A program made the position numbers and the translations under genes. The notes under the pieces were generated by a model. The model did no database searches and was not told the origin of the DNA. It saw nothing but the letters and a program-made list of their open reading frames with translations. Positions 17,517-36,590 of a stretch of DNA of 37,697 bases are shown here, piece by piece (positions within the stretch are counted from its first letter, which is position 1; the number at the start of each line of letters is the position of its first letter). The DNA comes from a phage: assembly GCA_020318295.1 (NCBI GenBank), contig GCA_020318295.1_4859.1; one strand, given 5' to 3'.

Positions 17517-17533
17517 CAAAAAAATAAGTAATG

Positions 17534-18910: not shown

Positions 18911-18925
18911 TTTGATAGCTCCTTA

Positions 18926-18964: not shown

Positions 18965-18973
18965 ATACGTATT

Positions 18974-19162
18974 TTAAATCTTGCACGCACCACCGGTGCA
19001 GTTGTCGTCGTCTTTCGACGGGTCAACGCCACCTTCCACACCTGCGTCAGGGTCAAGTCCAGGGATAACCATCTCGTCATCCGGAGACATGTTTACATCC
19101 GCACCTAACCCATCACGATACATGAACGTTGTGGCTTGCCCACGACCGAGTTCTCCAGCCAT
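18974..19162 (-). CDS. small acidic Gly/Asp-rich hypothetical protein (62 aa)
   Basis: ORF with GAGGA upstream; orientation matches the operon; a competing plus-strand ORF 18981..19178 has no RBS. Confidence 0.4.
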   Translation of the reverse strand: MAGELGRGQATTFMYRDGLGADVNMSPDDEMVIPGLDPDAGVEGGVDPSKDDDNCTGGACKI

Positions 19163-19174
19163 ATTTTCCTCTAC

Positions 19175-19654: not shown

Positions 19655-19665
19655 CTGTTTTCACC

Positions 19666-20463: not shown

Positions 20464-20698
20464 CTACGCTGTTACGGAGCATATTCAGTTCTTCTTCTTT
20501 CTTACGCAGCAGCATTTCAGGAGCGTTCTTTGCAAACTCTTTCAGTGCCATTTGGACGACATGCGAATCGGTTTCGTCCGGGAACAGAGCTTTTAATGCG
20601 ACCCATTCCTCCGCGGTGAATACGTCACCTTTGCGGACATTACGCTGTTGTGGTAGTCGAATTGTTTTACTGAGACGGTCTGTCATAGCTCCACCCAA
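20435..20698 (-). CDS. hypothetical small protein (87 aa; start may be the Met at 20686)
   Basis: ORF in operon context; overlaps neighbours by a few codons. Confidence 0.45.
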   Translation of the reverse strand: MGGAMTDRLSKTIRLPQQRNVRKGDVFTAEEWVALKALFPDETDSHVVQMALKEFAKNAPEMLLRKKEEELNMLRNSVDVLFKTMEK

Positions 20699-21219
20699 AT
20701 CAGTTTAAAGGTATTACCTTCTAAGCCAGTCGGATGGATAATCATCGCTTCGGTATAGATAGGTTCTTCCTCTGCAATACGGTGCTCGGCTGCTAAGCCT
20801 GAAAGATGCATGTAGAGGTCTTCATCCATATCTCCGTTAAAAGACGAGGTCAGGATAAAGGGTGTGGACTCGGCGATTTGCAAAAGCGTTTCTTTGCTAA
20901 TCTGTATCTCCATTGTCCGACGCCGTTCCATCCAGCTACCTTGTTCGTGGATATACGGATCGGTGTTAATACGGACGACTGGTTCCATAGATTCACCCAG
21001 ACCACGAGTCATCATCTGAATAGCCAGTAGCGTCCACCATTCCTGCTCAGCTATCGGGAAGCCGATAGCTTTCATCGTACCGTCCGGCTGCGGCACGTGA
21101 AGTTGTCCACGGTGCTCATCCGGAAACTCCACGATTTTCTGTCCATTGATAGGAATGAACGGTGGTTCGTCCGTGGTAACCACCGCTTTAGGCTTGAAGG
21201 GAACGACGTTGTCAGCCAT
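20683..21219 (-). CDS. hypothetical protein (178 aa)
   Basis: ORF in operon context. Confidence 0.55.
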   Translation of the reverse strand: MADNVVPFKPKAVVTTDEPPFIPINGQKIVEFPDEHRGQLHVPQPDGTMKAIGFPIAEQEWWTLLAIQMMTRGLGESMEPVVRINTDPYIHEQGSWMERRRTMEIQISKETLLQIAESTPFILTSSFNGDMDEDLYMHLSGLAAEHRIAEEEPIYTEAMIIHPTGLEGNTFKLIWVEL

Positions 21220-21231
21220 AAACGCTCCTAA

Positions 21232-22269
21232 TTAGATAGCCACCGGTGCAGATATTTTTTCATGAGACTGATACCCAACGATCTCAAAATCTTCGAATTT
21301 ATAATCGAAGATAGATTCCGGTTTACGCTTGATGATCAGTTTCGGTAAAGGTAAAGGTTCGCGAGTCAGTTGCAGCTTGGCCTGTTCCAGATGGTTGGAG
21401 TACAGATGTACGTCGCCACCGCTCCAAACGAAATCGCCCGGCACCATGTTAACTTGCTGAGCTACCATGTGAATCAGTAACGCGTAAGACGCGATGTTGA
21501 ACGGTGTTCCCAGGAAGAAGTCTTGGGAACGTGCATACAGCTGACATGAAAGAATGCGGCGAGGTATTTCAAGTGCGTTCATCTCAACGTGGAATACTGC
21601 GTCATCTGCTACAGCTTCATTACTAAAGCGGGAATCGTTAAATTGATCTGGAAGGTTCTTTTCAAACCAATCAAGACGCTCGTCGATAGACAGCTCACGA
21701 GTGTAGAACTGAAAGAACGCATGACACGGAGCTAACGCCATTTGATCCAACTCACCCACGTTCCATGCGCTGACAATAATACGGCGACTGTCAGGATCGT
21801 TACGCAGCTGGTCAATCACCTTAGAGATCTGGTCGTGCTCTTTCAGAAGTACACGCGCATCGAACATTTGTGAACCGTCGTCCGCGTCGCCATAATCCGC
21901 GTATCCAGCATCTTGCAGTTTCTCGAGTAAAGCTGCATTTTTCTTAGGCACCAGTTTCACATCTTTCCAACGTCTCCATTGTGCACCATACAGGGGGCCA
22001 AGGTTCCCATTCTCATCTTGCCACTCCCGCCAAATGGTAACGCCGTTATCTTCCAGATATTTGGTGTTGGTATCCCCACTAAGGAACCACAACAGTTCGT
22101 GAATAATAGAACGCAGGTGGAGTTTTTTAGTCGTGACTAACGGGAAACCTTTGCGCAAATCAAAACGCATTTGGCGACCAAAGACGGAGAGAGTCCCTGT
22201 CCCAGTACGATCGCCTTTAACATGACCCTCGTCCAGAATGTTTTGCATCATCTCAAGATATTGTTTCAC
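21232..22269 (-). CDS. thyA: thymidylate synthase (ThyA family) with two insertions (345 aa)
   Basis: Near-identical blocks to E. coli ThyA: MKQYLE.MQ..LDEG...[61 protein letters not shown] (catalytic Cys), [10 protein letters not shown] (Asn that specifies dUMP), [21 protein letters not shown]. Insertions of about 36 aa (nt about 21850..21966) and about 45 aa (nt about 21555..21702). Confidence 0.9.
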
Positions 22270-22271
22270 AA

Positions 22272-23141
22272 TTATTTTCCTTTCAATAAATTCAAAATGT
22301 CTCTTAAATCATCGTTCGCACAAATGTTTACAGCGTTACCATCGAACTTAACATCAACACGAGGGTTACGATTGAACAACATTTGTTTTCTTACTATCCA
22401 CGGTTCAAAGTGCGCCTTGAGAAGCTCTTGCAGCTTTTCGTTCATAATGTCCTCCATCCGCAGCAATAGCTGCGGCATGGCGACTTCACCGTTATGTTTG
22501 GTTTGTAAATCGTTCGATGTGGCCAAAAGGCAATTTACAATAATGTCGTGAACTGACTCGTTGGTTTTGTACACCGTCTGATAGGTTTGTTTCGCCAAAT
22601 CGTCGTCGGATAACGGCAACGATGCTTTGAGCAGTTCGCCGAGCGTGCTTGTCGTTTCAGGCGTCTTAACGAGCTTACGATGGCCATTAAAAACAACACG
22701 GTCAAACTCCAGCCCGCAACGACACGCCAACAATTGATACTGTCTCATCAACTTACGAAGCAGCGCGCTATAACTCTTAGCGTCAGGTTCTGGTTCACGC
22801 AAAACAACACTAACGGTCTCGACTGCAATTAACATGAGCTGCTGCAGTTGTCCTTCTTTCGTGCCAGTTGTAGTACGAACAGACACCGCATCACTCAACG
22901 GAACGACAATATCACCGAGGTTAGAATGTGGACCGAGGTGTAGCAGCGCGGCAAATGTCCAAATCGATTCACCGATACCGGCAGCCACCTTTAAGTTATC
23001 CAGTTCATCGACACCTGCTGAGATCCTGCCGAGTGTGACGTAATACTTCACCAACTGACGTTCAGTCGCTTTCTGTTGGTAAATATCTGTCTTGCGAAAC
23101 CACTCTTCGACTGCCTGAACTTGCTGAACGATGCTAGGCAC
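22272..23141 (-). CDS. hypothetical protein (about 289 aa; ORF track extends to 23234)
   Basis: I prefer the in-frame GTG at 23141, preceded by GGGAGGAAG, which overlaps the upstream stop by only a few nt; the track's start at 23234 would overlap the upstream gene by 100 nt. Confidence 0.5.
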
Positions 23142-23556
23142 AGACTTCTTCCTCCCGATACGCGTAGCAGATTGCAAAGTTAAGCTGGCCGGTTGCGCGA
23201 GAAACGACAACGGCGATAGTCTGGTCTTCCACACCCGACATCGGTGTGCCCTGATTAACCATTTGACCTGCGGCCTTACTTACCGGACCCAGCAAACGCC
23301 AGCTGTACAGACGGCTACGTAACGCTGCGTTTTGTAAGAAAGCGGAGCCGCAATCATAGTCGACATTAAACGCTGCAAACATTGGACCACAGTCTGCCAT
23401 CGTGCCGTTTAACGGCAGCTCGCTCGTTACCACAATCTTCACAGGCTTGTCTTTGAGACGCTGTGCTAACGCTTCCCAGTTAGCGTTATTAGTGCCAGCG
23501 ATGATGGTGTTGTTCAGAAGTAACCCAACGCCTTTTTCAAACGCGATATTGTTCAT
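23134..23556 (-). CDS. hypothetical protein (140 aa)
   Basis: ORF with AAGGAG upstream. Confidence 0.5.
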   Translation of the reverse strand: MNNIAFEKGVGLLLNNTIIAGTNNANWEALAQRLKDKPVKIVVTSELPLNGTMADCGPMFAAFNVDYDCGSAFLQNAALRSRLYSWRLLGPVSKAAGQMVNQGTPMSGVEDQTIAVVVSRATGQLNFAICYAYREEEVCA

Positions 23557-23604
23557 TATAGTTCTCCTTGAGGTCTTTTACATACGTACAGCCGTGCCCG
23601 TAAA

Positions 23605-23967
23605 TTATCGAAGAATAAGAATTTGGCTACTGTCGTGCACATTGTACGTATTCATCCTGGGCTTGCTAGGCGGGTTGAATCCCATCAATAATTCGCACAA
23701 TACACGACCAGGCTGCCCACTGAAGATAACTAGATGCGTGGTGTCTTCGCCGTCTCCAAGTCGGGAGAAAGCAACGCGTGGCGACGCAGCTTGCGTGTAG
23801 AGTTGCAATAGTTGAAACTTACCTTCTGCGAAGGGAGCAAGTTTCTCTTTCCACTCGACCATAGATGTTTCGTCGAGTTCTAACGTGCGTACACGTCTCC
23901 CGTCACTATCCGGAACACCACAAACAAACACGATTCCGTGACGATTAAAGAAGAAGCCGATTTGCAT
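23605..23967 (-). CDS. hypothetical protein (120 aa)
   Basis: ORF with AAGGAG 8 nt upstream, directly downstream of a terminator. Confidence 0.55.
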   Translation of the reverse strand: MQIGFFFNRHGIVFVCGVPDSDGRRVRTLELDETSMVEWKEKLAPFAEGKFQLLQLYTQAASPRVAFSRLGDGEDTTHLVIFSGQPGRVLCELLMGFNPPSKPRMNTYNVHDSSQILILR

Positions 23968-23980
23968 TTACATACTCCTT

Positions 23981-24019
23981 AAGATAAAAAATAAAGATAC
24001 CCTCTCCCGAAGGAGAGGG
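23981..24019 (-). terminator. rho-independent terminator (minus strand)
   Basis: Stem CCCTCTCC / GGAGAGGG with loop CGAA, followed on the minus strand by TATCTTTATTTTTTATCTT, then the AAGGAG RBS of the 120-aa gene. Confidence 0.65.
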
Positions 24020-24025
24020 CACGAC

Positions 24026-24685
24026 TTAGATGCGGGTTTCATTATCCCAGTAGTTCCGAATGACTTCCTGGGCTTCAGCATCCGACGGGTTGCCTGGAAT
24101 AGCGTCTTCTACTGCAAACGGCAATACGTCCTTGATAGACGTCAGCTCAAATCGCTCAACTTCCAGTTCGACTTTTACCCACTCGCCGAATGTAGTGGAG
24201 TCGCGCAGTTCGTTGACAAGGTCTTCGAAACCTGCCTGCGATTCGATAACTGGGTGACCTGCCAGTTTAAAGAACAAGTCGATATCCCAATGCTTCGCAC
24301 CTTGCTCTGCCAGCTCGCCTGGCTCGAGTTTGATACGACGCACGAGATGTGCAAGATTGCCATCTTCGTAGAAGGTCAGACCGGAAGCAAACCCGATATC
24401 TGAGTTCTCTTCGATACGACCATCAGATGCTTGTCGTTTTAACGTTAAGACTGCGGTTTTATCGGTGGACAACCGCACACGACGTTTGCCGTTAACGACC
24501 GGCATGATGACGTCCAGGAACGTTTCACCTGTCTGACCAAACAGCCATTGCCAACCTTCTTCAGTGGGTTTAACCCACATGCAATACTCACGTTCCTTCT
24601 CCGTAGAGATGGACTCACGCGCAACAGTAATGACTTCTTTTTCCTGCTGCTCGTCGAGGTTTTTGAGAATATCAAATAGTCCCAT
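24026..24685 (-). CDS. hypothetical protein (219 aa)
   Basis: ORF with AGGAA upstream; 14-nt overlap with the upstream gene. Confidence 0.55.
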   Translation of the reverse strand: MGLFDILKNLDEQQEKEVITVARESISTEKEREYCMWVKPTEEGWQWLFGQTGETFLDVIMPVVNGKRRVRLSTDKTAVLTLKRQASDGRIEENSDIGFASGLTFYEDGNLAHLVRRIKLEPGELAEQGAKHWDIDLFFKLAGHPVIESQAGFEDLVNELRDSTTFGEWVKVELEVERFELTSIKDVLPFAVEDAIPGNPSDAEAQEVIRNYWDNETRI

Positions 24686-25523
24686 CGTCGATTCCTAGTT
24701 TCTTCAAAAGTTCGGCTCGATCAAACGTACTGTCTTCAGGATCGATATGTTCAGCTATCATCTCAATCAGATTTGGTAGCCAGTCCCAGTGTGCTGGGAA
24801 TATCTTACGCCCTTGCATCATGTAATAATGCTTAAGCGGGATACGTGCTCGCAGAATCTCTGCAAATACATTACCTAACGATGTCCCGTCGACCGACAGT
24901 ATAAAGAGTTTATTTACCAGCGCATGGATAAAACGGCTTTCTGTAACCGGAGTAAATGTACCTGGCTTATAACTGGTTCCTCCGTAGATTTCCGCTTTCA
25001 GATTACGACCTAACCGGATACAGTCGGTGCCATCTAGCGCACGTAACTTCTCAATATCAGGCCAGGTGTTCACTGCCTGTTGCATGATATCAAATTCCAT
25101 CACCAAAGTGCGGTTATCAATTTCACGCATTAAGTAATCCAGAATACGCAGGTAATGATAATAACCTTCGAGCGTCCGGAAAGGGCCGTGGGGGGTAACA
25201 AAATACTCACCAGGGCGAGCATAAAAGTTACTCGCCATCCGACCTATCTCAGTTCGACCCTGCGAATAGATGTTGAAGTGATTCAAACCATCTGTAGACG
25301 GCGTGATATCCACCAGGGTACTCTGATAACCCATACGCAGTAAATAGCGTACAAAGGCTTCCTTTTCTTCTGGCGGGAGGATGGGACGTAAAACAGGATA
25401 TGTGGTTCCTACTGCGGCGGGCAATGCAAAGCCAAAAGCAGCCGCCAAAGCATCCACCGATGCACCATCATCGCGTAGGCGTTCCAACGCACTACGCAAA
25501 AACTTACCTTCATCTTTCGACAT
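24672..25523 (-). CDS. hypothetical protein (283 aa)
   Basis: ORF in operon context. Confidence 0.55.
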   Translation of the reverse strand: MSKDEGKFLRSALERLRDDGASVDALAAAFGFALPAAVGTTYPVLRPILPPEEKEAFVRYLLRMGYQSTLVDITPSTDGLNHFNIYSQGRTEIGRMASNFYARPGEYFVTPHGPFRTLEGYYHYLRILDYLMREIDNRTLVMEFDIMQQAVNTWPDIEKLRALDGTDCIRLGRNLKAEIYGGTSYKPGTFTPVTESRFIHALVNKLFILSVDGTSLGNVFAEILRARIPLKHYYMMQGRKIFPAHWDWLPNLIEMIAEHIDPEDSTFDRAELLKKLGIDDGTI

Positions 25524-25532
25524 AGAGGTACC

Positions 25533-26807
25533 TTATAAGGCGAAATAGCTCTGTACCAGTGTACTGGCAGACTGATATTGGACACTACCACCGGCGATAA
25601 CGTATGGGCGTTTCTCGGTAGTTAAGAGTGCTTGAATCGCATTACTGTTGGCGTATGTGTAAAGCTTAAGTTCAACCATTCCAGGATTCGTTTTAGAGAT
25701 ATCCCAGTTTGGATTAAGCGCTTTAAACAACGTTAACAGTCGCTGACCGTAGGTACTGTAACCCACGCCTGGTTCAACGTTAAGGTTCATCAGAAGATTC
25801 TGAATAACGGTATCTGCAATCTCAGCACCTTGACCAGGCTGTAGTTTAGGCAAGTAATACTCAACAGAATTGAGATTACCCGCCGCCGCAGCCTGTATCA
25901 TCAGTTCGCCGTACAACGCTTGTTGTGCAATAGGATCGGTGATAGCCTGAATCATCGGATCGATGCGATTCGGCAGACCGTATTGATTGAGCTTTGTGGA
26001 CATACCGTATATCAACGCAGACGAGGTGTTGATATCCAGCGAGGAGAAATTCCCACTCCCGCCCGTAAAGCTATCAATGATCCCGTCGATAGACAAGAAG
26101 TCGTCCAGGTCCTTAAAGCTATCAAACGTGTGTGTAACATCGTCAATCAGTGCGGTGACTTGCCATTTGGCGCTATTGGCCATATCGACGTAGTTACCGA
26201 TTTCACGCTGTACCTCACCAGGCAGTTTGGCAAGCTGTCCCGCGATGTTCATCGTGGACTCCAGGCGAGCTTTCACTGACGCATAATCTGTCCCGACCGC
26301 GCTTAAAGCGCTATCGCGAAGATCAGTCAGTGTATCCCATCCCTTACTTAACAGACTACCTGCGCCGCCCGGTGAGAGATAGCTCAGTGCAGTTTTCCCT
26401 TCCTGGTTTACCTTCTGAAAGGGTTCGGACACATCGCGCTTCTGTGGATCGATAACTGGCAGCGCTTCTTTCGTGTTGGAAGCAAAAGTAGGCACACGTT
26501 GAGGCGGCGATACTCCGGAAGCCGCTGAACCTGCTGCCTTTTTACCACCTACCGTGACTTGGTCGCCGCCCCCGAACACGTTACCAAATTTTTCACTTAT
26601 CGTGTTGCCAATGTTGGAGATCTTGTCGAAAGTTTCCCCTGCTTTGGCGGTTACGTTATTGTACAAATTTTGAGCACTTTCAATACCGCGCTCGGCATTA
26701 CCAATCGTTGACTGGACACGGTTTTGAACATCGTTAACTTTGTTCTCTATTGCGCCCGTTGTGCTGCTTATCTGGTTGGTAATCCCATCAAGGTTGTTCA
26801 GTTTCAT
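25533..26807 (-). CDS. hypothetical protein, possibly structural (424 aa; Gly/Ser/Thr/Asn-rich)
   Basis: ORF whose composition resembles phage virion or fibre-like proteins; no catalytic motif. Confidence 0.55.
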   Translation of the reverse strand: MKLNNLDGITNQISSTTGAIENKVNDVQNRVQSTIGNAERGIESAQNLYNNVTAKAGETFDKISNIGNTISEKFGNVFGGGDQVTVGGKKAAGSAASGVSPPQRVPTFASNTKEALPVIDPQKRDVSEPFQKVNQEGKTALSYLSPGGAGSLLSKGWDTLTDLRDSALSAVGTDYASVKARLESTMNIAGQLAKLPGEVQREIGNYVDMANSAKWQVTALIDDVTHTFDSFKDLDDFLSIDGIIDSFTGGSGNFSSLDINTSSALIYGMSTKLNQYGLPNRIDPMIQAITDPIAQQALYGELMIQAAAAGNLNSVEYYLPKLQPGQGAEIADTVIQNLLMNLNVEPGVGYSTYGQRLLTLFKALNPNWDISKTNPGMVELKLYTYANSNAIQALLTTEKRPYVIAGGSVQYQSASTLVQSYFAL

Positions 26808-27666
26808 TGGAACTCCAGAATCTATACGTCGCTAACGGAACGTCGTCGCTGACCTCATATTCTCTACCACTACGATGACGAACTTTGAAAGTGATTTCGA
26901 ACTCACGTACGTCCAGCGCTTGTAAGATTATTAGAAACCAACGCCAGGTGATTGCCTCGGTGTGACGCATCGCCTGTTTCATGTTGTTTCGTCTGTCCCC
27001 ACGTTTGGATGATGTGCCTGGGCACAACTTAGGGTTGTTGACGTAGTTCGTCGTCCACCGTTCCAGTTTATCACCATCGATTTTATACCCACGAATAACT
27101 TTGTAGATTAAACGCAGGAGAATGTGCTTCATCACATGTTCGATAGTGTGGTCGATGTTCGCGACATACTCGTTAACGTCGTAAGATGCGGGATGCTCGA
27201 AACGCTCTTTACGTTTCTTCCTGTTCTCATTACGTAAGTTCTTAATGAAGTCCTCACGCACAAACGTACTGTCGAATACAAAACACTTCGTGTCAAAGCT
27301 TCCCCGCTTAGTCAGCAGGGTGACTGTTAGCGTTTGCATCTCCAGGATAACTAATCCCTCGATGAAACGTTTCCACGTAAAATCGACTGTCAGGTTACGT
27401 ACCGAACCACCCGTAAGTGAGGTGTTCAGCCGGTTAACGCGGTCGGTCATCGTGGTCAGTTTGCTGTCACGAAACTGTTTCAGATACTCCGGGTCGTTGA
27501 CATGTTGACGGATAAGGTCTTTCCATATCCCGTCGCTAATACCCATCAACTTAACCAGATTCCAATAAGCTTTCCTTAACGGGTAGCTGGAATCTGACGC
27601 CGGTGGCGTACCGTGCCAAATTTGCTCGCGTGTGCTATTCAGCGGCGGCTTTTTCTCATCATCCAT
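26788..27666 (-). CDS. hypothetical protein (292 aa)
   Basis: ORF in operon context. Confidence 0.5.
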   Translation of the reverse strand: MDDEKKPPLNSTREQIWHGTPPASDSSYPLRKAYWNLVKLMGISDGIWKDLIRQHVNDPEYLKQFRDSKLTTMTDRVNRLNTSLTGGSVRNLTVDFTWKRFIEGLVILEMQTLTVTLLTKRGSFDTKCFVFDSTFVREDFIKNLRNENRKKRKERFEHPASYDVNEYVANIDHTIEHVMKHILLRLIYKVIRGYKIDGDKLERWTTNYVNNPKLCPGTSSKRGDRRNNMKQAMRHTEAITWRWFLIILQALDVREFEITFKVRHRSGREYEVSDDVPLATYRFWSSNETEQP

Positions 27667-27699
27667 ACATCACCTTGTTACAAGGGAATAGATTAAAAG

Positions 27700-28230
27700 T
27701 TAGAGATAGTGTTCCACTATCACTTCTAACTCGCGGAAGATATGTGCGGTTTGATTAAACAGCGTATCCTGTTCGGGTGTTTGTTTATCAAATGCACGCT
27801 GATACAGTTCTAACATAGCGAAGACTGTGCGCAGTTTATCGCGCGCGACTTCAGGATCGGATGCACCGAAATAATGATCAAGCCATCGTGGTTCTGAACT
27901 CTCTCCTTTTCTATCGATTGCCTCAGGCAACTCTAACCAACGTTGATTGGGAATGTTGCTACTGGATACACGGTTATACTCAGAAATGAAGAATTCCAAT
28001 CGCTCCACCAACGTGTCAAAATCTCGAATACGTAATTCGAGTTGTCCACGCAATGAAAAAGGAAGGTATTCTTTCCCATTATATTCCAGAGGCTCTGTAA
28101 TGAGTTCTAAGCCCACCATCACTCTGTGCAGGGTGTTATGGGTATTCTTATGAAACTCAGCCTCCAAAGAGCGTCTGCGAGCTTCTACAGCCTTACGACG
28201 CAGGAGTGTTGAAAGCCATTTAAAAAGCAT
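27700..28230 (-). CDS. hypothetical protein (176 aa)
   Basis: ORF; first gene downstream of the conserved promoter-like motif. Confidence 0.55.
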   Translation of the reverse strand: MLFKWLSTLLRRKAVEARRRSLEAEFHKNTHNTLHRVMVGLELITEPLEYNGKEYLPFSLRGQLELRIRDFDTLVERLEFFISEYNRVSSSNIPNQRWLELPEAIDRKGESSEPRWLDHYFGASDPEVARDKLRTVFAMLELYQRAFDKQTPEQDTLFNQTAHIFRELEVIVEHYL

Positions 28231-28263
28231 AGGTGTTATCCTATTATGAGATGTTGTCTCGGA

Positions 28264-28293
28264 TAGATAATATCTGTCTGAGTTCTTTTTGAG
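28264..28293 (-). promoter_or_regulatory. putative phage promoter element, copy 1 (minus-strand read CTCAAAAAGAACTCAGACAGATATTATCTA)
   Basis: The 12-nt core AGATATTATCTA is identical to the copy at 35829..35840 and, in both, ends exactly 33 nt upstream of an ATG; 23 of 30 positions are identical across the extended motif. Confidence 0.5.
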
Positions 28294-28306
28294 ATGAGGT
28301 TATCCC

Positions 28307-28777
28307 ATGAGCGAAGAAGTGAAATACCAAGCGTTCGACGGAGATGTGGACAACGAAGATTCGCTTCTCCGCCAAACACAACAGCTACGCGTTAAGCTCG
28401 TCACGGATATGGTGAACGACGGTGAAGTACACAAAGACTTAAAAGCCGTCGACCGAATCGAACGCCTAATCAACGGCATCGACAAACAGGTCATGACGAA
28501 GCGGAAAATTAAAGCTGCTGAGAAAGGCGCTGAGGCGACTCAAGATTTGGCCAACAGTTTAAACGGCTTCTTAATGACCCGTGCAGGCGTTGGTATCAAA
28601 CGTCACGACGATGAAGAAGATTTAAATAACGGATACCAACCCACCGTCCCACAGATTGCCGCAGTACGGCCTCCGAAAGAAGGTGAGTTGGCACCAGTAG
28701 GCGAAAAGATTGACGTTGACCAGATCATGGCGTCTGCGTTTGCGAGTCGTCGTCCTGCTGATGACGACGAAGACTAA
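28307..28777 (+). CDS. hypothetical acidic protein (156 aa)
   Basis: ORF with GAGATGAGG upstream; lone plus-strand gene in a minus-strand block; its 3' end overlaps the convergent 242-aa gene by 53 nt. Confidence 0.5.
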   Translation: MSEEVKYQAFDGDVDNEDSLLRQTQQLRVKLVTDMVNDGEVHKDLKAVDRIERLINGIDKQVMTKRKIKAAEKGAEATQDLANSLNGFLMTRAGVGIKRHDDEEDLNNGYQPTVPQIAAVRPPKEGELAPVGEKIDVDQIMASAFASRRPADDDED

Positions 28778-29453
28778 ACAGCGCAGTGTCCTTTACGTCA
28801 GTACCGACGTATTGAGCAAGAAAACGGGTGGACTCCTTAAAGGGGTTCACCTTATCTCTTTTTATTTGCGCGATTGCTTCTTCCGTTAATTCGCTGGTCA
28901 GCATACTCGGTCGGGTAATGGTGAAATCCGGAATCGGTTTCTGGAAATGGCCCGCGTGTTGTTCTATCCACGGGTACCAGTCGTACATTATCCAACCGTC
29001 CCACGCCGAAGCAAGTCGTCCTGGTGTAAGATCGCTGTGAGGAATAACAACGACGTCTACTTGCACTTCGTTGTAGTAGTAGCGAAGTTCTTCCAAAAAC
29101 GCATGACGTTCTTCATCATCGAGATCAGCGTATGGCCACAGGTTAAACGTTAAGACAGGTCGCTCGATAGGAGCGTGCATCTGTATCGTCATTAACATTG
29201 CCTGTACTTCGTTCTTTAGCGTAAGCAACATTTCTGTTGGCTGCGCGTTCTGCAACGCGCGTTTATCACGCTCCGCGAACTTTTTATTCCAGTCCTGAAT
29301 TCCTACCACTTCGGCCCACGCATCCGTGAACCGCATCCGATACACTTCTAAATCAAGCTTCTCTAATACATCAGGCTGCAGCACTTTCGCCCAACCAATT
29401 CGTGTATCGAAGATTGTGTCGATATCGACTAAGAAACGGCGTCCTAATCTCAT
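28725..29453 (-). CDS. hypothetical protein (242 aa)
   Basis: ORF; ATGA overlap with the upstream gene. Confidence 0.55.
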   Translation of the reverse strand: MRLGRRFLVDIDTIFDTRIGWAKVLQPDVLEKLDLEVYRMRFTDAWAEVVGIQDWNKKFAERDKRALQNAQPTEMLLTLKNEVQAMLMTIQMHAPIERPVLTFNLWPYADLDDEERHAFLEELRYYYNEVQVDVVVIPHSDLTPGRLASAWDGWIMYDWYPWIEQHAGHFQKPIPDFTITRPSMLTSELTEEAIAQIKRDKVNPFKESTRFLAQYVGTDVKDTALFSLRRHQQDDDSQTQTP

Positions 29454-30118
29454 TCCGGGCGTCCTAAGTTGTTACCGATGTGCATTGCTTTAAAGTACGA
29501 AGACCATGTACGCGGCGCTTTTGAACTGGTACGCTCAGCCCCTTCCAGGTTGATGCGACCTTTACCGGTTTGCCGTAGCGATTGATAGAACGCACGTTGT
29601 AACGTATCGTTACCACCACGCGCCCACAGGAACTCCTGGAGCGTTGAGTCGTGTCCATCCGAGTACATGATGTACGCTTCTGGAAACGAAACACCCGAGG
29701 CTTTGGAAGGCCCTACTACCTGACCTGAGAGTTTATCGCGGACTTTATCGTTCTTCGCCACCGCCATTTTCTTCTCTTGCATCTGCGTCTGGCGACGTGC
29801 AGGTAGCCGGAAGACCAAATGGGGATAACGGGTACGCTGTAGGATACCGGTTTTCGGTTCCGTGAGCCACAGGCGCTGACACAAGTTCAGTCCCATCGCT
29901 TCGCAAATTTTAATATTGCGCATATGGTCAATTTTGACCTTGCCGCCAGTTGGGTTGTAAACAGGCAACCCTTCGCGCAGACGATTGAACTCTTCGTCAG
30001 ACATTCGTGAGAAAGCGCGCTTGGCAGCTTCCGCGTTAATCCCGGTCGGGTCAACTAAGTTCAGTAACTGTAAAGCATAAGCTTCTGCTTTTTTTCGCCG
30101 TGCCGGGTCTAATCTCAT
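29450..30118 (-). CDS. hypothetical protein (222 aa)
   Basis: ORF; ATGA overlaps on both sides. Confidence 0.55.
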   Translation of the reverse strand: MRLDPARRKKAEAYALQLLNLVDPTGINAEAAKRAFSRMSDEEFNRLREGLPVYNPTGGKVKIDHMRNIKICEAMGLNLCQRLWLTEPKTGILQRTRYPHLVFRLPARRQTQMQEKKMAVAKNDKVRDKLSGQVVGPSKASGVSFPEAYIMYSDGHDSTLQEFLWARGGNDTLQRAFYQSLRQTGKGRINLEGAERTSSKAPRTWSSYFKAMHIGNNLGRPE

Positions 30119-30390
30119 TTTTTCATCCTCTCACGGAGCACTGGAAGAACCACACGTTCCAGGTCTTCAATCCAGTACGGGATATCTTCATTGTGTTCAG
30201 GCACACCGACCGCATCAACCTTCGGTTTATCATTAATCAGGTTGCCGTAATGGGCATTTACCTGATGACTAAATTCAGACAGTGCATGTCGCGGTGCTGA
30301 GAACTCGTTATGGAACGCGGTGCTAAGTTCCTGGCTAATACCAGCGAGACCCAGACACAGACGCTCTACAATATCTTTCTGATAACGCAT
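30115..30390 (-). CDS. hypothetical protein (91 aa)
   Basis: ORF with GAGGA upstream, downstream of a terminator. Confidence 0.5.
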   Translation of the reverse strand: MRYQKDIVERLCLGLAGISQELSTAFHNEFSAPRHALSEFSHQVNAHYGNLINDKPKVDAVGVPEHNEDIPYWIEDLERVVLPVLRERMKK

Positions 30391-30402
30391 CGCTAATCCT
30401 CA

Positions 30403-30431
30403 GGGGAAAAAAACAGGCGGGTTGCCCCGCC
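30403..30431 (-). terminator. rho-independent terminator (minus strand)
   Basis: Stem GGCGGG / CCCGCC with loop TTGC, followed on the minus strand by TGTTTTTTTCCCC; lies 6 nt after the stop of the 497-aa gene. Confidence 0.6.
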
Positions 30432-30436
30432 CGTGC

Positions 30437-31930
30437 TTATTTCTTCTTAGTCAAGAACTTAGGTTCCAGACCATCCACGGCCATCGCCAGTAATGACATT
30501 GCTGTTAAGCAACGCTTACCGCCTTTGACTTCCTGATCCTTGAACATCCAGTATTCCACTGTATTGTCCAGAATTTCATTCCAGTCCCACTTTTCGTCGA
30601 TAACTTTATAAAGCTCCGCCGGTGAGAGATGGTATTTCATTTCCAGTCGGTGGTAGTTATTCTGCATGTACGCTAATGCGGCGGTGATTTCCAACGCACG
30701 GCGCAAACGCGGGTTGCTGTCACACATGTCGCGAATCGTGGTACGCATGAAAGATGTACCAGGTAGCAAATCGAGGGTATAATTAGCACCACTACGTTTG
30801 TAGCCCCATTCATCTTTCAGTGTGTCGCTCAGGTAATGCCACAGAGAGAGGTGATAAAGCAGACCCATCTCCTGTGAGAAGACCATTTTGAACTTAACGC
30901 CTGTGTGACCACCTTTCGCACGGTACTGCGTGAACACGATTTCTTTCAGGTCGTTCACCGAAGCATTCATTGCCTTCGAACGCGCAGTCGGGTATTTCTC
31001 TTCGTTTACACCGGTCTTCGCGTTGTAAGTCTGATCCTGCTTCAACTCACCAGACTTGGTTGCAACCAGCAGGGAGTTAGTTAAGAACGACAACTGACGG
31101 CGCGGGATACCCGCAAACTTCAGATCATCGCCCGCATCGTCCAACAGTTTACCGTTCGCCTTCGGTCCACCACGGCCACCTGCCGCCATTGCTTTACCCG
31201 CATCGTCGGCCAACTGAGCAACGAAGCCCATATAGAAACCACCACGCGCAAACGCAGACGGCCAACGGCTCATCATATTCGATTTCTGCAGGGCATCGTG
31301 GGCGTTCAGGATGTTCTGTTCAGAATCACCGACTTCTGATTTGGCATGTTTCTCTTCCAGAGAAGAGGTGTGCCATTCGGACAGGGAGTCAATCGAGTAC
31401 AACCACGGGTCGAGAATCTTTTTCGCAGAGCGACGGATTGGGTCCGGGAACGGTGTTTCGCGTGCCTTACCAGCCATGTACTCTTTGAAACGTTTTTCGA
31501 CTTCGTCACGGATATAAGCAGAGTAATACTCCTCACCCGCCATGATATCCGAGCCAACCATGTTGTAACGACCTTCGTGGATCAGGTCCAGCACGCCGCC
31601 CGTTGGTGATACTTCTAATCCGTTTGCTTTCGCTGCGGAAATGTACCCTGTTTCCAGACGACTTAATGCAGCCGTAACTTCGGTATCGTATTTCGATCCC
31701 CAGGCCGCATTATAACGTTGCAGAATCATGAAAATGCAGAAGTCTAATAGGGTAGACTTAAAGGTGTTCCCACGACCTGCGAAGCCCATGATGTGGGCAA
31801 AACCACCGTTGAGGTAGTACAAACCATCTTCCCCGCGCTCGTAGTTACCGAGAGCGTGGTCCATGATGGTATATACGTTAAAACGAGGGCGAATCACTTC
31901 ACCCATGACTTGTTTAGCTGGACCTGCCAT
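30437..31930 (-). CDS. RecA/UvsX-like P-loop protein, putative recombinase (497 aa)
   Basis: Gap-free resemblance to the T4 UvsX Walker-A region as I recall it: NGGFAHIMGFAGRGNTFKSTLLDFCIFMILQRYNAAWGSKYDTE versus TGGMQSGLLILAGPSKSFKSNFGLTMVSSYMRQYPDAVCLFYDSE (GG, AG, FKS, RY, YD.E conserved). Confidence 0.45.
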   Translation of the reverse strand: MAGPAKQVMGEVIRPRFNVYTIMDHALGNYERGEDGLYYLNGGFAHIMGFAGRGNTFKSTLLDFCIFMILQRYNAAWGSKYDTEVTAALSRLETGYISAAKANGLEVSPTGGVLDLIHEGRYNMVGSDIMAGEEYYSAYIRDEVEKRFKEYMAGKARETPFPDPIRRSAKKILDPWLYSIDSLSEWHTSSLEEKHAKSEVGDSEQNILNAHDALQKSNMMSRWPSAFARGGFYMGFVAQLADDAGKAMAAGGRGGPKANGKLLDDAGDDLKFAGIPRRQLSFLTNSLLVATKSGELKQDQTYNAKTGVNEEKYPTARSKAMNASVNDLKEIVFTQYRAKGGHTGVKFKMVFSQEMGLLYHLSLWHYLSDTLKDEWGYKRSGANYTLDLLPGTSFMRTTIRDMCDSNPRLRRALEITAALAYMQNNYHRLEMKYHLSPAELYKVIDEKWDWNEILDNTVEYWMFKDQEVKGGKRCLTAMSLLAMAVDGLEPKFLTKKK

Positions 31931-31945
31931 TTAGCGCTCCGTCAA

Positions 31946-32245
31946 TTAGCGTTTTTTCAGTGGGAGTAACAGACGACGTTTATGCCAAACTTCGAAATGC
32001 ATTTCTGCCCACTCGGTGACTTGACTGTCATCTTTAGGGTTGATATTAGAAATGCCCTTGAAGCGGTTACGGTTACGTTCGTCGATTTCGATTTCCAGAA
32101 CGCGCTGACCATCAGCACGAGTGGTCACGTTCAGGATTTTACCAACCACGATCGGACTACCATCGGTATTCTTCTTCGTCGGGGTGGTGTAAATCTCAGG
32201 TTCGATACGAGAGGTTAAAGCGCGAGTCAGTAATTTGATTCTCAT
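31946..32245 (-). CDS. hypothetical small basic protein (99 aa)
   Basis: ORF; first minus-strand gene after a 98-nt divergent intergenic region. Confidence 0.5.
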   Translation of the reverse strand: MRIKLLTRALTSRIEPEIYTTPTKKNTDGSPIVVGKILNVTTRADGQRVLEIEIDERNRNRFKGISNINPKDDSQVTEWAEMHFEVWHKRRLLLPLKKR

Positions 32246-32343
32246 CAGATGTTACCTTTATGCAGTTCTCGTACATAAGGTTTGGGTGATACGTAAAAGA
32301 CTTACTATGTAGCCCAATCCCTTATATATTCGAGGTTGATAGA

Positions 32344-33099
32344 ATGAATGTTAATCCACTTGCAGCGTTGTCGGGCTTTGTTGCCAAAGCATCCACGATT
32401 CTGCCTAAAGCCTTTAGCGGCTCTCAACAGGAACTCGCGCTGACCACCTATGACGACATGTCTGATGTGTCCAAGTGGATGCAGCAAGAGAAGTTTTTAA
32501 ACTTTACCGGAATGCTTGTACCCGTACCTCCGGGCTTCAACACGTATGTGATGGACCACATAGAACGGTTGGAATCTGTATGGGCTGTGCTCCAGAAGAT
32601 TCAGGAAGGGGTTTTAAGTCCCATCGACAAACGTTTCGGCGCGATGACACACGACCTGGGTATGCTGACACTGCCTATCGGATTTAAGTTCAAAGACCTG
32701 AACTACCCACTGAAAAACATTAACCCGAAAGACCTGGTTGAGAAACTGGCGAAGTCGTACACCAACAATGTGGTCGACCAGCGTGCGATTGAAAAGACCT
32801 ACCACAGTGCAGGTGAGATTGACGTTGCGTTTAATCGTGCCAAAGCGCTGAACCTGGAAGTGACTAAGAAACTCCAGAAAGGTATTGACCGTACAGTTGA
32901 AAGCATCAACGTCTCTGTAGACATTATCTCTAATTCACAAGTCCATCCTAATGTGGCGGCAGAGTTAGTGAAAATGGCTGACATGGGTGCTGACTGGGTT
33001 GAGCTGTTCGGACTGTTTATGAAACAGATTAATGAACTGACAGAATGCCTGAACGTAACCGGTGATCGCCTCAAGACCCTGAAAGCAAACAAAAAATAA
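32344..33099 (+). CDS. hypothetical protein (251 aa)
   Basis: ORF with GAGG upstream; lone plus-strand gene bounded by a divergent intergenic region and a bidirectional terminator. Confidence 0.55.
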   Translation: MNVNPLAALSGFVAKASTILPKAFSGSQQELALTTYDDMSDVSKWMQQEKFLNFTGMLVPVPPGFNTYVMDHIERLESVWAVLQKIQEGVLSPIDKRFGAMTHDLGMLTLPIGFKFKDLNYPLKNINPKDLVEKLAKSYTNNVVDQRAIEKTYHSAGEIDVAFNRAKALNLEVTKKLQKGIDRTVESINVSVDIISNSQVHPNVAAELVKMADMGADWVELFGLFMKQINELTECLNVTGDRLKTLKANKK

Positions 33100-33110
33100 A
33101 AAGTAAGCAG

Positions 33111-33152
33111 TACCCACTCCCCTTACGGGAGTGGGTAGGCTTTATTTTATTT
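33111..33152. terminator. bidirectional rho-independent terminator between convergent genes
   Basis: Stem TACCCACTCCC / GGGAGTGGGTA with loop CTTAC, followed by GGCTTTATTTTATTT on the plus strand and preceded by an A-run that reads as a T-run on the minus strand. Confidence 0.7.
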
Positions 33153-33161
33153 CGGACCGAT

Positions 33162-33704
33162 TTAGAATTTACTGATAGTAAGTGGCTGCATTGGCTCGAC
33201 CACAATCAGTATTTCTTTCAGACGTGAAACGATATGCTCCCAGACCTGTGCTTCAAGGTGACGTAACATGGTGGTGAACTCACCCATGTACATCTCTTTA
33301 TACTCGTCGCGGTTGAGATGTTCCCACGCTTCTTTCAATGGGCCTGCTTCTGGACCAGACATCTTGATCATCATTTCGATGTCTTTCATCTCATCAAACG
33401 CTTTACCGACTTTATCAATAACCTCATCGGTTTTAAGTTCGAGCGAGAAACGACCCATCTTAGACTGCAGGAAGCCGTCTTCAATGTCTTCATCGTTGTA
33501 TTCAAAACAAGCAATACGTTGCGCGAGTTGATGAACTTCATTTACCGCGATGTTGACGTACGCCGCAGAGATAAGACCAGCGAGGTGCTGACGATCGATA
33601 TTCTTTGGTATCAGATAGTCTTCACACTTACGCTTAAACTCGAACAACGCCGCTGGAAATATTTCGCGAAATTCGTCATCGAGTAAATCAATGAATATTT
33701 TCAT
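33162..33704 (-). CDS. hypothetical protein (180 aa)
   Basis: ORF; ATGA overlap with the upstream gene. Confidence 0.55.
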   Translation of the reverse strand: MKIFIDLLDDEFREIFPAALFEFKRKCEDYLIPKNIDRQHLAGLISAAYVNIAVNEVHQLAQRIACFEYNDEDIEDGFLQSKMGRFSLELKTDEVIDKVGKAFDEMKDIEMMIKMSGPEAGPLKEAWEHLNRDEYKEMYMGEFTTMLRHLEAQVWEHIVSRLKEILIVVEPMQPLTISKF

Positions 33705-34240
33705 TCAGCAGGTTTCCCATATTTCTCGCCGAGATACAGTAGTTCACGACGACAGATAGCCAGCACCTTCATTTCCGCATCACGATACAGCTTGGTGATT
33801 TTGTCAATGATTGGCTGGTCAACGATATCAGACCATGTTACCGTGTCCGTGACGTTCGATGATTGCCCGTTAATGACCACAGCAACATATGTCTCGCCCA
33901 GGTTCTCTTGATGTAACCCCGCCAGTGATTCACCAACCTTATCAAAGGCTTCACTCAATAAGTCGGTGATTTGGTCCGTCCCTTCTACCAGTTCAAAACG
34001 ATGGGGATAGTTCAGAATATTGCGCAGCCGCGTGAACATACGTTCAATAAGCTGATTTACCATATCCCCAGTGTCGCAGATAGCCACATCTACGCCCGAA
34101 CCTATTTCGTCAGACAAACGATTTTCGTGGACGGCCAACGCATCGTGAAGTTCAAATTCCACGTCACGTTTTAATCCTAACAGAATTTCATCTAGCTGAC
34201 GTCTCGACTCCGACAGAGCGAAGTCAATTACGATTTGCAT
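33701..34240 (-). CDS. hypothetical protein (179 aa)
   Basis: ORF with AAGGAG upstream. Confidence 0.55.
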   Translation of the reverse strand: MQIVIDFALSESRRQLDEILLGLKRDVEFELHDALAVHENRLSDEIGSGVDVAICDTGDMVNQLIERMFTRLRNILNYPHRFELVEGTDQITDLLSEAFDKVGESLAGLHQENLGETYVAVVINGQSSNVTDTVTWSDIVDQPIIDKITKLYRDAEMKVLAICRRELLYLGEKYGKPAE

Positions 34241-34250
34241 CTAATGCTCC

Positions 34251-34724
34251 TTAAAAGTTACTTACCTCGGGCTGCGTATACCAGTATCTGCACGCTACGA
34301 GATCCACAACGTTATATTTCAGTTGTCCACCGTGCTGTGACGTGTCTGCCAATTCATGCGCAAGCTTGTACGCTAAGTCTTCACGGTTGTCGAGGATAAG
34401 CAACACAACACGCTGCACCTCATTAAAGATATCCGGTTCACGTAAACAACTGTAGCGCTCGCTAAGATGCTTAATAACGCCTTTATAAACATCTCCTGGT
34501 ACAGCAGTGCCATTTTCTGCTACGTGGAATGAAACAAGCACGATTTTAATTAAAATCTCGACAACCATGGAGTATATCATTCCACGGTTGCCGTTAATTT
34601 CCACACGCTTTAGATACTCTTGCAAGTCCATCAATGACTCGCTATACACCTTTAACATAGCGACCACCTCTAGTTGGTTGCCGGCCACACCCCTGGCGAT
34701 GGGATTGCATTGTATCCACGCCAT
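34251..34724 (-). CDS. hypothetical protein (157 aa; start may be the internal Met near 34658)
   Basis: ORF in operon context. Confidence 0.5.
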   Translation of the reverse strand: MAWIQCNPIARGVAGNQLEVVAMLKVYSESLMDLQEYLKRVEINGNRGMIYSMVVEILIKIVLVSFHVAENGTAVPGDVYKGVIKHLSERYSCLREPDIFNEVQRVVLLILDNREDLAYKLAHELADTSQHGGQLKYNVVDLVACRYWYTQPEVSNF

Positions 34725-35047
34725 TTCTTAATCACGACAAGGTTCGAGCCTGGAAGACCATCTAAATCAAAACCAACAGTAGCAACGACATCAACTTCAG
34801 CATCCAGCGATACCTGATCGCGACCCTGTGTTCTGAAATGCGCAAGAGACGCCAGTTTACCGCCAGTAATCGCAGTATCGCGAATAAGACGTGCCATATT
34901 GCGCATCTCTACTGTCACTTCTCCACGAATAGCGACACTCAGCGTTGCTTTATTTAACCAGGCTTCTTGTCCCGGTTCGACAATATAGAGAATCACACCT
35001 TCTTTGTAATACTGTTTTACCATCGTTTCAAATTCGTCTTGCGTCAT
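34670..35047 (-). CDS. hypothetical protein (125 aa)
   Basis: ORF with AAGGAG upstream. Confidence 0.5.
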   Translation of the reverse strand: MTQDEFETMVKQYYKEGVILYIVEPGQEAWLNKATLSVAIRGEVTVEMRNMARLIRDTAITGGKLASLAHFRTQGRDQVSLDAEVDVVATVGFDLDGLPGSNLVVIKKWRGYNAIPSPGVWPATN

Positions 35048-35060
35048 TTTAAATACTCCT

Positions 35061-35795
35061 TCAGTAGTTTAGTTTCTCAGCGACATCTTTACGGATGCGA
35101 CACATCACCACCATCGCACCATTCGGAATTTGGCTCACGCAGTTATCCGTGTAAAACTTACCTTCACACAGATAAAAGTCCAGACACATGGCATCGGTCA
35201 GTTCGTGCCACAGGGTGCCGAAACCATACTGCCAAGGGCCGGAATGAACGACATCGTAATCGCCATCAGTTATGCCAAATGCGGCAGTAGCGGAAGACCA
35301 CAGTGTTGAGGAGGTGGTATAAGTGTCATACCAGTAACCGAGCAGACGATGGTTACGACGTATCTCAGCTAACCGCTCGTACATTGGGATGAATACATCT
35401 TCCACCTGCGTGACAAAATCAGCCAGCATCAACTTTTCCGTAAACCACTCGATCCACGCAAAGATTTGTTCTTCAACGTCTTGTTGGCTTAACCCCGTGG
35501 CAGTAATGCCTTCTTCGTAGGTGTAACCTTCGTAGACGTCAACAACATTAATCTCTACATGTTCTAGCGTGAACAACCGTTCGGTGTTGATGCAGTCGTA
35601 CATCTCTTGTAACCACGCAGTGAAGACTTCTATACAGACGTTGATGGCTGTGTACTTGAATTCATCGCGCAGTGGATACCACTGTGGGTTATCCTTTAGT
35701 TCGTTCTTCGCGAACGCGGGCCAATGCTTTTCGAACAACGCTTCAAAGAACTGGGGCGTGAGGTTTAAAAGCACTGGCACTTCGACTTTAAGCAT
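35061..35795 (-). CDS. hypothetical protein (244 aa)
   Basis: ORF with AAGGAG upstream; first gene downstream of the second copy of the promoter-like motif. Confidence 0.55.
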   Translation of the reverse strand: MLKVEVPVLLNLTPQFFEALFEKHWPAFAKNELKDNPQWYPLRDEFKYTAINVCIEVFTAWLQEMYDCINTERLFTLEHVEINVVDVYEGYTYEEGITATGLSQQDVEEQIFAWIEWFTEKLMLADFVTQVEDVFIPMYERLAEIRRNHRLLGYWYDTYTTSSTLWSSATAAFGITDGDYDVVHSGPWQYGFGTLWHELTDAMCLDFYLCEGKFYTDNCVSQIPNGAMVVMCRIRKDVAEKLNY

Positions 35796-35828
35796 CGTGA
35801 ATAAATTCTCCTTAAGGTTACGTCCCTG

Positions 35829-35858
35829 TAGATAATATCTATCTCAGATTACTTTAAG
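35829..35858 (-). promoter_or_regulatory. putative phage promoter element, copy 2 (minus-strand read CTTAAAGTAATCTGAGATAGATATTATCTA)
   Basis: Same 12-nt core and the same 33-nt spacing to the ATG at 35795 as copy 1. Confidence 0.5.
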
Positions 35859-36589
35859 AGATGCAAGAAGCGTGCTGCCTGTTCTGTAAAGTGAAAATAC
35901 TCGATGGTATCAGGTTCGTCCGAGTGAATGTCATCCGGGTCCAGCAGGTAGCCCGAGATATCATCCGTTAAAACCCAAGCGTCTCCCTGCAGGAAAATAC
36001 CCATCGGTTTTTCTACCACAGGCATCACCAAGTCCGAATAAGAGTTACCTTCTGCTACCCTTACAATGTCTTCACACGGGTCAACAATATACAGGTTGCA
36101 GAGACTACGATCTTTAAGACTGCGATGAAACATCGCACGATCGTACCAAATAACCTGAGAACAATTATCTTCGTCACCCGCCACATCGACCAACTCTGTC
36201 CAGAAACGATGTAAGAACCAGTTCAACGCACCGGTTATTAGCTCGTTCGGTTTCAGCATTCTAACGTGTTCGTCGTACAACTCTTCCATTGTCCAGATTC
36301 GACATTGCTCACGATCGATTGTCGGTAGCGGAGGTATTTGCGGCGGGACTTGTTTAGGCATCGGTTCATCACATCTTGCATTGTAACGCGCAATTGTTTC
36401 AGTAACCAGCTCTGCCACAACATCACAAGCCGCTTCAAACCCCCACTTGTACAACACGTCGTAATCTTCCATGGGCGCAGCACCGAACTCACGGTTCGTT
36501 GCCATCCACGACATCCATCCGTATTGCTCCACACAGTTAATCAGACTTTGTGTGTGGAGCGTGAGCGATTCACTCACGACTCGCAACAT
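35849..36589 (-). CDS. hypothetical protein (about 246 aa; ORF track extends to 36649)
   Basis: I prefer the internal ATG at 36589, with AGAGG 7 nt upstream, which sits 1 nt from the upstream stop; the track's start would overlap the upstream gene by 59 nt. Confidence 0.5.
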   Translation of the reverse strand: MLRVVSESLTLHTQSLINCVEQYGWMSWMATNREFGAAPMEDYDVLYKWGFEAACDVVAELVTETIARYNARCDEPMPKQVPPQIPPLPTIDREQCRIWTMEELYDEHVRMLKPNELITGALNWFLHRFWTELVDVAGDEDNCSQVIWYDRAMFHRSLKDRSLCNLYIVDPCEDIVRVAEGNSYSDLVMPVVEKPMGIFLQGDAWVLTDDISGYLLDPDDIHSDEPDTIEYFHFTEQAARFLHLLK

Positions 36590-36590
36590 G

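Follow-up and report, generated by a model that had tools for sequence, protein, structure and literature searches.

Jumbo phages that carry genes for their own multisubunit RNA polymerases all possess a conserved AT-rich motif of ~10 nt near position -10, located upstream of their early operons; it is read by the injected virion polymerase, and transcription starts 6 nt after the motif (PMC7598289; PMC5312081). This distance applies to the early motifs of phiKZ and phiR1-37 (PMC5312081). In AR9, the early promoter reads AAATATATATTAT-(6N)-G+1, also written as ATATATTAT-(6N)-G+1 (Lavysh 2017, PMC5312081), and phiKZ contains 28-32 early promoter sites with an AT-rich consensus (Wicke 2020, PMC8244752). 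Early promoters of this form have been described for phiKZ, 201phi2-1, AR9, and phiR1-37, and those of phiKZ and 201phi2-1 are conserved at -10, -20, and -30. Here, we analyzed a stretch of phage DNA of 37,697 nt (GenBank assembly GCA_020318295.1, contig GCA_020318295.1_4859.1; referred to as the window in the following), in which the 12-nt sequence AGATATTATCTA precedes two minus-strand genes. Both elements probably represent the early promoter of a jumbo phage closely related to Salmonella phage SPN3US and would be read by its virion RNA polymerase. The doubt that remains about this assignment mostly concerns the identity of the polymerase and the timing of transcription.

The early promoters of phiKZ have reportedly been treated by Ceyssens and coworkers in 2014, and a motif prediction across all of these phages is said to be contained in the work of Lavysh and coworkers from 2016. 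The consensus of SPN3US was not found written out in the literature that we searched, which did not include the latter study. A literal search of papers for the motif strings likewise returned nothing relevant.

Two copies of the element in the window

With an identity of 98.6-99.6%, the window matches SPN3US, a jumbo phage of Salmonella, and close relatives of this phage, and it corresponds to the reverse complement of SPN3US from ~182 to 220 kb. These phages have genomes of ~240 kb, belong to the genus Seoulvirus, and are related to phiKZ. AGATATTATCTA is present exactly twice in the window, at 28264-28275 and at 35829-35840, both on the minus strand. Exactly 33 nt separate each copy from the ATG of a minus-strand open reading frame (ORF), which is in each case the first gene after the element: a 176-amino acid (aa) homologue of SPN3US gp221 (phrog_8650; 27700-28230) after copy 1, and a 244-aa homologue of gp209 (phrog_8219; 35061-35795) after copy 2. 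The 30-mers containing the two copies are identical at 23 of 30 positions. The positions of the two copies, their spacing to the ATGs, the lengths of the two genes, and the identity of the 30-mers had been noted in an initial annotation of the window, and all of them were confirmed.

Counted from approximately -35 to +3, copy 1 extends over 28258-28295 on the minus strand (ctcAAAAAGAACTCAGACAGATATTATCTATCC-G(+1)AG), 5' of the gp221 homologue, and copy 2 over 35823-35860 on the same strand (ctcTTAAAGTAATCTGAGATAGATATTATCTACAG-G(+1)GA), 5' of the gp209 homologue. The -10-like core ATATTAT is located at 28267-28273(-) in copy 1 and at 35832-35838(-) in copy 2. Transcription would start at a G at 28260(-) and at 35825(-), respectively, positions predicted from the sequence that would give 30-nt leaders to the ATGs at 28230 and 35795. 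Copy 1 lies within the 76-nt gap between the gp221 homologue and the divergent 156-aa homologue of gp220 (28307-28777, plus strand), in agreement with the divergent intergenic location assigned to it initially. The upstream end of copy 2 reaches into the preceding gene, the gp208 homologue (35849-36649), where it covers the final codons and the stop. In both copies, the core is a near-palindrome, TAGATA-T-TATCTA, which is perfect over 13 bp in copy 2 and matches at 12 of 13 positions in copy 1.

Taken by itself, the repeat within the window does not exceed chance. The window contains 80 pairs of identical 12-mers, compared to ~43 expected (31-53 in shuffled sequences), and the extension to 23 of 30 positions is only marginally the best among these pairs, several others reaching 22 of 30. 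With up to two mismatches allowed, AGATATTATCTA matched seven times in the window compared to 1.6 expected matches; five of the seven were weak intragenic matches or reverse-strand echoes, the latter arising because the core is near-palindromic. A third weak match to the 12-mer, located within the gp214 homologue at 32918-32930 (two mismatches on either strand), scored below 5 bits with the matrix described below and was treated as chance. What makes the element significant is a genome-wide family of 23 sites in SPN3US and its conservation across genera. These 23 oriented sites (22 of them intergenic), the cross-genus conservation, and the homology to the promoters of phiKZ and AR9 exclude a chance repeat without function as an explanation. 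The same evidence supports the initial proposal that the element is a phage-specific promoter.

A family of oriented intergenic sites in SPN3US

A genome-wide motif search, which the initial annotation had proposed, was performed on SPN3US. We assembled the whole genome with its 264 annotated genes and searched it for the motif. An unbiased ranking of intergenic 8-mers, with T-runs, terminator stems, and ribosome-binding sites set aside, was led by GATATTAT, AGATATTA, TATTATCT, ATAGATAT, and ATATATTA, all with a strong strand bias; GATATTAT was found 16 times on the plus strand and once in reverse. Listing of the ATATTAY sites yielded 19 copies of an extended consensus, and a weight-matrix scan added four variants with ATGTTAT or ATGTCAT, resulting in a total of 23 sites. 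They scored 23-54 bits, and the next matches, at 18 and 12 bits, were reverse-strand echoes of palindromic cores. The consensus of the family, ~38 nt in length, reads c.AAAa..TTTcAGATA(G/T)ATATTA(T/C)CTannG-AG. ATATTAY is kept in 19 of the 23 sites and in both window copies, with an information content of 2 bits at six adjacent positions. In each of the 23 sites, as well as in all orthologous sequences examined, ATATTAY is followed by a G at a distance of exactly 7 nt. When the family matrix was applied to the window, it returned only the two reported copies, with 43.5 bits for copy 2 and 41.3 bits for copy 1, and, with 18.2 bits, the echo of copy 1 on the opposite strand; the best score in shuffled windows, obtained in one of 20 shuffles, was 18 bits.

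The sites are random neither in position nor in orientation. All 23 lie on the sense strand of the next gene, and 22 are intergenic, although only 6.4% of the SPN3US genome is intergenic (P ~1e-25). Counted from the predicted G, the leaders are between 26 and 261 nt long (median, 53 nt). The identical spacing of 33 nt, initially taken as a sign of a promoter, is therefore not a property of the family, and the equal spacing of the two window copies is a coincidence.

The sole intragenic member, at SPN3US position 25232 inside gp30, has the full consensus, scores 39 bits, and lies 261 nt before gp31.

Conservation across phage genera

Both copies form conserved islands in relatives from the genera Seoulvirus, Erskinevirus, and Machinavirus, which include Erwinia phages, with flanks that are ~70% identical. 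At copy 1, SPAsTU, Asesino, phiEaH2, and ChrisDB all carry the 26-nt sequence AAAAAGAACTCAGACAGATATTATCT without any change, and likewise the GAG at the predicted start. The four phages represent three genera, and their DNA matches to the copy 1 part of the window are 70-82% identical. The cross-genus conservation of this 26-nt block goes beyond what the family consensus requires. At copy 2, SPAsTU, pEa_SNUABM_29, and Asesino retain the core A(G/A)ATAGAT(A/G)TTATCT as well as the G at +1. Three islands persist in this region, namely the ATG, the ribosome-binding site, and the core together with the G, whereas no alignment of the upstream flank is possible. When IMG/VR was scanned for exact 15-mer matches, at least 120 stretches were obtained, most of them at chance level, and the scan was uninformative; the likely relatives among its matches were exclusively contigs of ~224-259 kb, including SPN3US (240,413 bp) and phiEaH2 (243,050 bp).

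Comparison with known phage promoters

We compared the element with the promoters of phiKZ. TATATTAC occurs seven times in the first 50 kb of this phage, always on the plus strand, in intergenic regions, and 43-73 nt before start codons, once before gp54. These sites align without gaps to the window copies and the SPN3US sites, sharing T..AAA near -30, TTT.A near -20, ATATTA(C/T) at -10, and a G 7 nt later. Both phages contain tens of copies per genome, which are intergenic and in the sense of the genes. The leaders of phiKZ, mostly 31-40 nt, compare to 30 nt at the window copies. Unlike in phiKZ, the core is immediately preceded by cAGATA(G/T) and followed by CT in the SPN3US consensus. Because of these additions most SPN3US sites are near-palindromic, whereas those of phiKZ are not. 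Moreover, the phiKZ starts have been mapped experimentally, whereas those given here for the SPN3US type are predictions.

The core is also shared with AR9: its early promoter and the SPN3US sites of the form ATATATTAC or AGATATATATTAC-(6N)-G match at 11 of 13 positions (counted by eye) and have the same 6-nt spacer to the G. Site numbers are comparable, with 34-39 in AR9 and 23 in SPN3US. AR9 differs in its flanking consensus, in the uracil content of its genome, in its host, which is a Bacillus, and in that it lacks a phage nucleus.

Two further promoter classes were compared. The late and middle promoters of phiKZ, which are used by the non-virion polymerase, contain TATG with its G as +1, and TACT at -22. 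They are likewise phage-specific and belong to the same phage family, but the window element has neither TATG at the start nor TACT at -22, and it precedes genes of the non-virion polymerase rather than structural genes. No TATG was found at the predicted starts in the window, where the sequences read ATCCGAG and ACAGGGA. The virion RNA polymerase of phage N4 recognizes promoters that form a DNA hairpin with a 5-7 bp stem and a 3-nt loop. An injected virion polymerase and an inverted repeat at the promoter are common to both systems. In contrast to N4, the palindrome of SPN3US is AT-rich and is lost in the ATATATTAC sites without compensating changes, and its polymerase is multisubunit rather than T7-like. 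A hairpin of the N4 type maintained at all sites was not found among the 23 sites, in which between 4 and 10 of 12 pairs are symmetric.

TATG-type motifs, often (G/C)TATGA, were observed to be enriched upstream of those SPN3US genes that lack the early motif, including structural genes. Examples are gp170/171, gp173, gp214/215, gp256/257, and gp262, and they resemble the phiKZ late promoter TATG. Within the window, such motifs occur in the divergent gap between the gp215 and gp214 homologues (32246-32343) and at 28245-28248(+).

Genes downstream of the motif

In SPN3US, the motif is located directly before the clusters gp22-23, gp34-35, and gp76-77. Two of these proteins, gp35 and gp77, are named subunits of the non-virion RNA polymerase, whereas the virion polymerase consists of gp42, gp218, gp240, gp241, and gp244 (PMC5105663). 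Judged by their RNA polymerase beta annotations, gp23 and gp34 probably belong to the non-virion enzyme as well. None of the 23 sites lies directly in front of one of the genes for the virion polymerase, nor in front of any of the 33 minus-strand genes of SPN3US, many of which encode virion or tail proteins. This would be the expected pattern for a virion enzyme that is itself made late and serves to make the non-virion enzyme early. Three of the five virion polymerase subunits are encoded in the window, all on the minus strand: the homologues of gp241 (beta-N subunit, 1683-5888) and gp240 (beta-prime-N subunit, 5907-7520) have no motif upstream, and that of gp218 (beta-C subunit, 29450-30118) has none directly upstream.

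Ten motif-preceded genes, among them gp209 and gp221, were searched against Pfam and PHROGs. Apart from gp34, an RNA polymerase beta subunit, they matched nothing but families without known function. The gp221 homologue is followed by homologues of gp222-gp225, up to a terminator-like hairpin at 24022-23997, and the gp209 homologue by homologues of gp210-gp213, up to a hairpin at 33111-33137.

Tandem copies of the motif were observed at two places in SPN3US. Those at 15620 and 15713 are 93 nt apart and lie before gp22, in a cluster with the beta-type gp23. The copies at 72492 and 72690 are 198 nt apart and lie before gp76, in a cluster with gp77, a fragment of the non-virion beta-N subunit. 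The product of gp22 was considered as a homologue of phiKZ gp54 and thus as nucleus shell protein, but this candidate was dropped, since it gave no match in the PDB and no pairwise similarity.

Proposed assignment to a polymerase and alternative readings

Overall, the evidence favors the injected virion RNA polymerase as the enzyme that reads the element, and hence an early promoter class; the start site, the polymerase, and the early timing are what we infer from the likenesses described above. The proposed promoter would consist of an A/T-rich upstream part with AAA near -30 and TTT/cAGATA near -20, the invariant -10-like block ATATTAY, and a G start exactly 7 nt past this block. By homology with phiKZ and AR9, the multisubunit virion polymerase (gp42, gp218, gp240, gp241, and gp244) would be injected together with the DNA and bind the duplex element through the upstream A/T blocks and ATATTAY, requiring neither a host sigma factor nor new protein synthesis. 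Initiation on the minus strand, with G 28260 and G 35825 as the starts, would then lead to transcription of the gp221-gp225 block up to the hairpin at 24022-23997 and of the gp209-gp213 block up to that at 33111-33137, the 30-nt leaders carrying the ribosome-binding sites. The element is of a known kind, the early promoter class of phiKZ-related phages, and in this sense real but ordinary. This is biologically unsurprising, given that published work states that such a motif is detected computationally for every jumbo phage encoding RNA polymerases. A reading of the raw sequence had picked out a true regulatory element, and the present analysis provides a usable consensus, the positions of 23 sites in SPN3US, and the two predicted starts. 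With these, the early regulon of SPN3US-type phages is directly testable. SPN3US is a genetic model for which amber mutants of the virion polymerase are available. Furthermore, gp209-gp213 and gp221-gp225 are marked as probable early genes and thereby as candidates for roles in host take-over or anti-defence.

Several points weigh against this assignment. Transcriptome, start-site, timing, or polymerase-dependence data on SPN3US were not found in the literature searched, and the comparison with phiKZ takes the TATATTAC sites to be the mapped early consensus of this phage, in agreement with their positions and alignment. With matches only to families without known function, gp209 and gp221 do not by themselves qualify as early genes. 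Finally, ATATTAT-(6N)-G is also the geometry of a sigma-70 -10 element, and a near-palindromic core, as found at most sites, is characteristic of sequences bound by dimeric regulators and uncommon in promoters. The former would mean that the Salmonella RNA polymerase uses the element as an extended -10 promoter, taking TATTAT as the -10 and initiating at the G located 7 nt downstream. TATTAT agrees with TATAAT at five of six positions, the spacing from core to G is that from the sigma-70 -10 to +1, and an extended -10 box has been ascribed to the early motif of phiKZ as well. Yet we regard recognition by the host enzyme as very unlikely: both copies lack a -35-like hexamer at 16-18 nt, a promoter scan called neither of them on the motif strand, and sigma-70-like sites are depleted in the window (16 compared to 24.3 ± 4.4 in shuffles, positions 17000-36900). 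In addition, more than 20 positions are conserved outside the -10, and the non-consensus T of TATTAT is never replaced by A, both unlike host promoters. The palindrome, on the other hand, could point to an operator, with the core TAGATA-T-TATCTA primarily bound by a dimeric phage protein, for example in the shut-off of early genes. Early promoters need to be silenced late, when new virion polymerase is made, and the helix-turn-helix protein gp101 of SPN3US is encoded by a gene that is itself preceded by the motif. An operator as the primary function is nonetheless highly improbable, given that 23 of 23 sites share one orientation and an asymmetric consensus, A/T-rich upstream and with an invariant G downstream. 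Moreover, two central pairs of the palindrome are lost in the seven ATATATTAC sites and are not compensated for, Watson-Crick symmetry varies between 4 and 10 of 12 pairs across the family, and the counterpart in phiKZ is not palindromic. Operator and promoter functions would be compatible, although the data can be explained without the former.

Another alternative adds to the early promoter rather than replacing it, and it concerns copy 1 only. Here, the minus-strand promoter of gp221 could be combined with a second element on the plus strand, either a promoter or a terminator/attenuator. Read in reverse, copy 1 contains cGGATAGATAATATCTGTCT-G (ATAATAT-CTGTCT-G), 28 nt before the ATG of gp220, with a G 7 nt after ATAATAT and a score of 18 bits. 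Transcribed on the plus strand, 28258-28292 would form an 11-bp RNA hairpin, CUCGGAUAGAU-AAU-AUCUGUCUGAG followed by UUCUUUUUGA, which resembles a terminator or attenuator. The DNA after the stem reads TTCTTTTTGA; the T-run ends ~15 nt and the stem 25 nt before the ATG of the gp220 homologue. This hairpin is strand-specific, because two of its pairs are G-U, and its fold energy is -13.2 kcal/mol, compared to 0 to -6.7 kcal/mol at the other 22 SPN3US sites. A terminator-like hairpin with T-run is present on the plus strand at copy 1, whereas copy 2 and the other 21 sites have none; no plus-strand gene ends at copy 1. The invariance of all 26 nt over three genera, which exceeds what the family consensus needs, is also in line with a second function, and since the gap upstream of gp220 comprises only 76 nt, its promoter must overlap the copy 1 region. 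We still consider a compound element unlikely. A score of 18 bits was also reached in one of 20 shuffled windows, and no other member of the family faces a gene in reverse. The virion polymerase of AR9 has been reported not to tolerate single mismatches (PMC5312081). Asesino and phiEaH2 have the hairpin in a weaker form, ChrisDB gives an unclear picture, and part of the 26-nt invariance is due to the ribosome-binding site of gp220, which together with its leader overlaps the upstream half of promoter copy 1, and to the promoter itself. The initial suggestion that copy 1 could also serve the plus-strand 156-aa gene thus remained unsupported: the family is asymmetric, none of its 23 members faces the reverse direction, and the 18 bits compare to at least 23 bits for real sites. 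As a rather speculative extension, copy 1 might act as a compact two-strand switch, working as an early promoter in one direction and as a second promoter or a terminator/attenuator in the other, either to control gp220 or to block antisense transcription. In more general terms, the near-palindrome might be the site at which a dimeric factor silences early promoters late in infection. To this we attach little probability. With the early promoter on the minus strand as the preferred reading, we turn to the remaining observations.

Divergent gaps, leaders, and terminators

In three of the five divergent gaps of SPN3US, the ATATTAY core was observed 28-34 nt from the start codon on the opposite strand, namely in gp33/gp34 (28947-29014), gp220/gp221, and gp262/gp263. 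This proximity implies that the A/T-rich upstream half of the promoter doubles as the leader and ribosome-binding region of the opposite gene. The TATG at 28245-28248(+) was tried as a late-type promoter for gp220 and rejected, since it is not conserved in SPAsTU or Asesino.

The 5' ends of several predicted transcripts share a structural feature. Single-sequence folds revealed a stable hairpin (z <= -3) at the predicted +1, or not more than 2 nt away from it, in 8 of the 23 SPN3US transcripts, those starting from the sites at 4446, 56313, 65432, 92559, 94258, 114005, 165706, and 223296. The stems are unlike in sequence, for example GAGAGUU/AACUCUC and GAGACGUA/UACGUUUC. These hairpins give some independent support to the predicted start and may act as 5' stabilisers. 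Their counterpart in the window comprises only 4 bp, GAGA-CAACA-UCUC, at 28260-28248(-), beginning at the predicted +1 of copy 1. The leaders downstream of the ATATATTAC sites yielded no consensus fold, as their hairpins vary in both length and sequence.

A second motif, AATCGACTAT(TAATCTTAAGGAG), was found in leaders. It is present eight times in SPN3US, always on the plus strand, at 23831, 65455, 93795, 94280, 166644, 167592, 222528, and 223318. Most copies lie just 5' of a ribosome-binding site, and several are downstream of an early promoter.

Terminator-like hairpins are enriched in the window, with 33 compared to 18.5 in shuffled sequences (positions 17000-36900). Strong ones are located at 30434-30413(-), 24022-23997(-), and 18964-18941(-). 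The hairpin at 17533-17558 was called on both strands, and that at 33111-33137 on the plus strand only.

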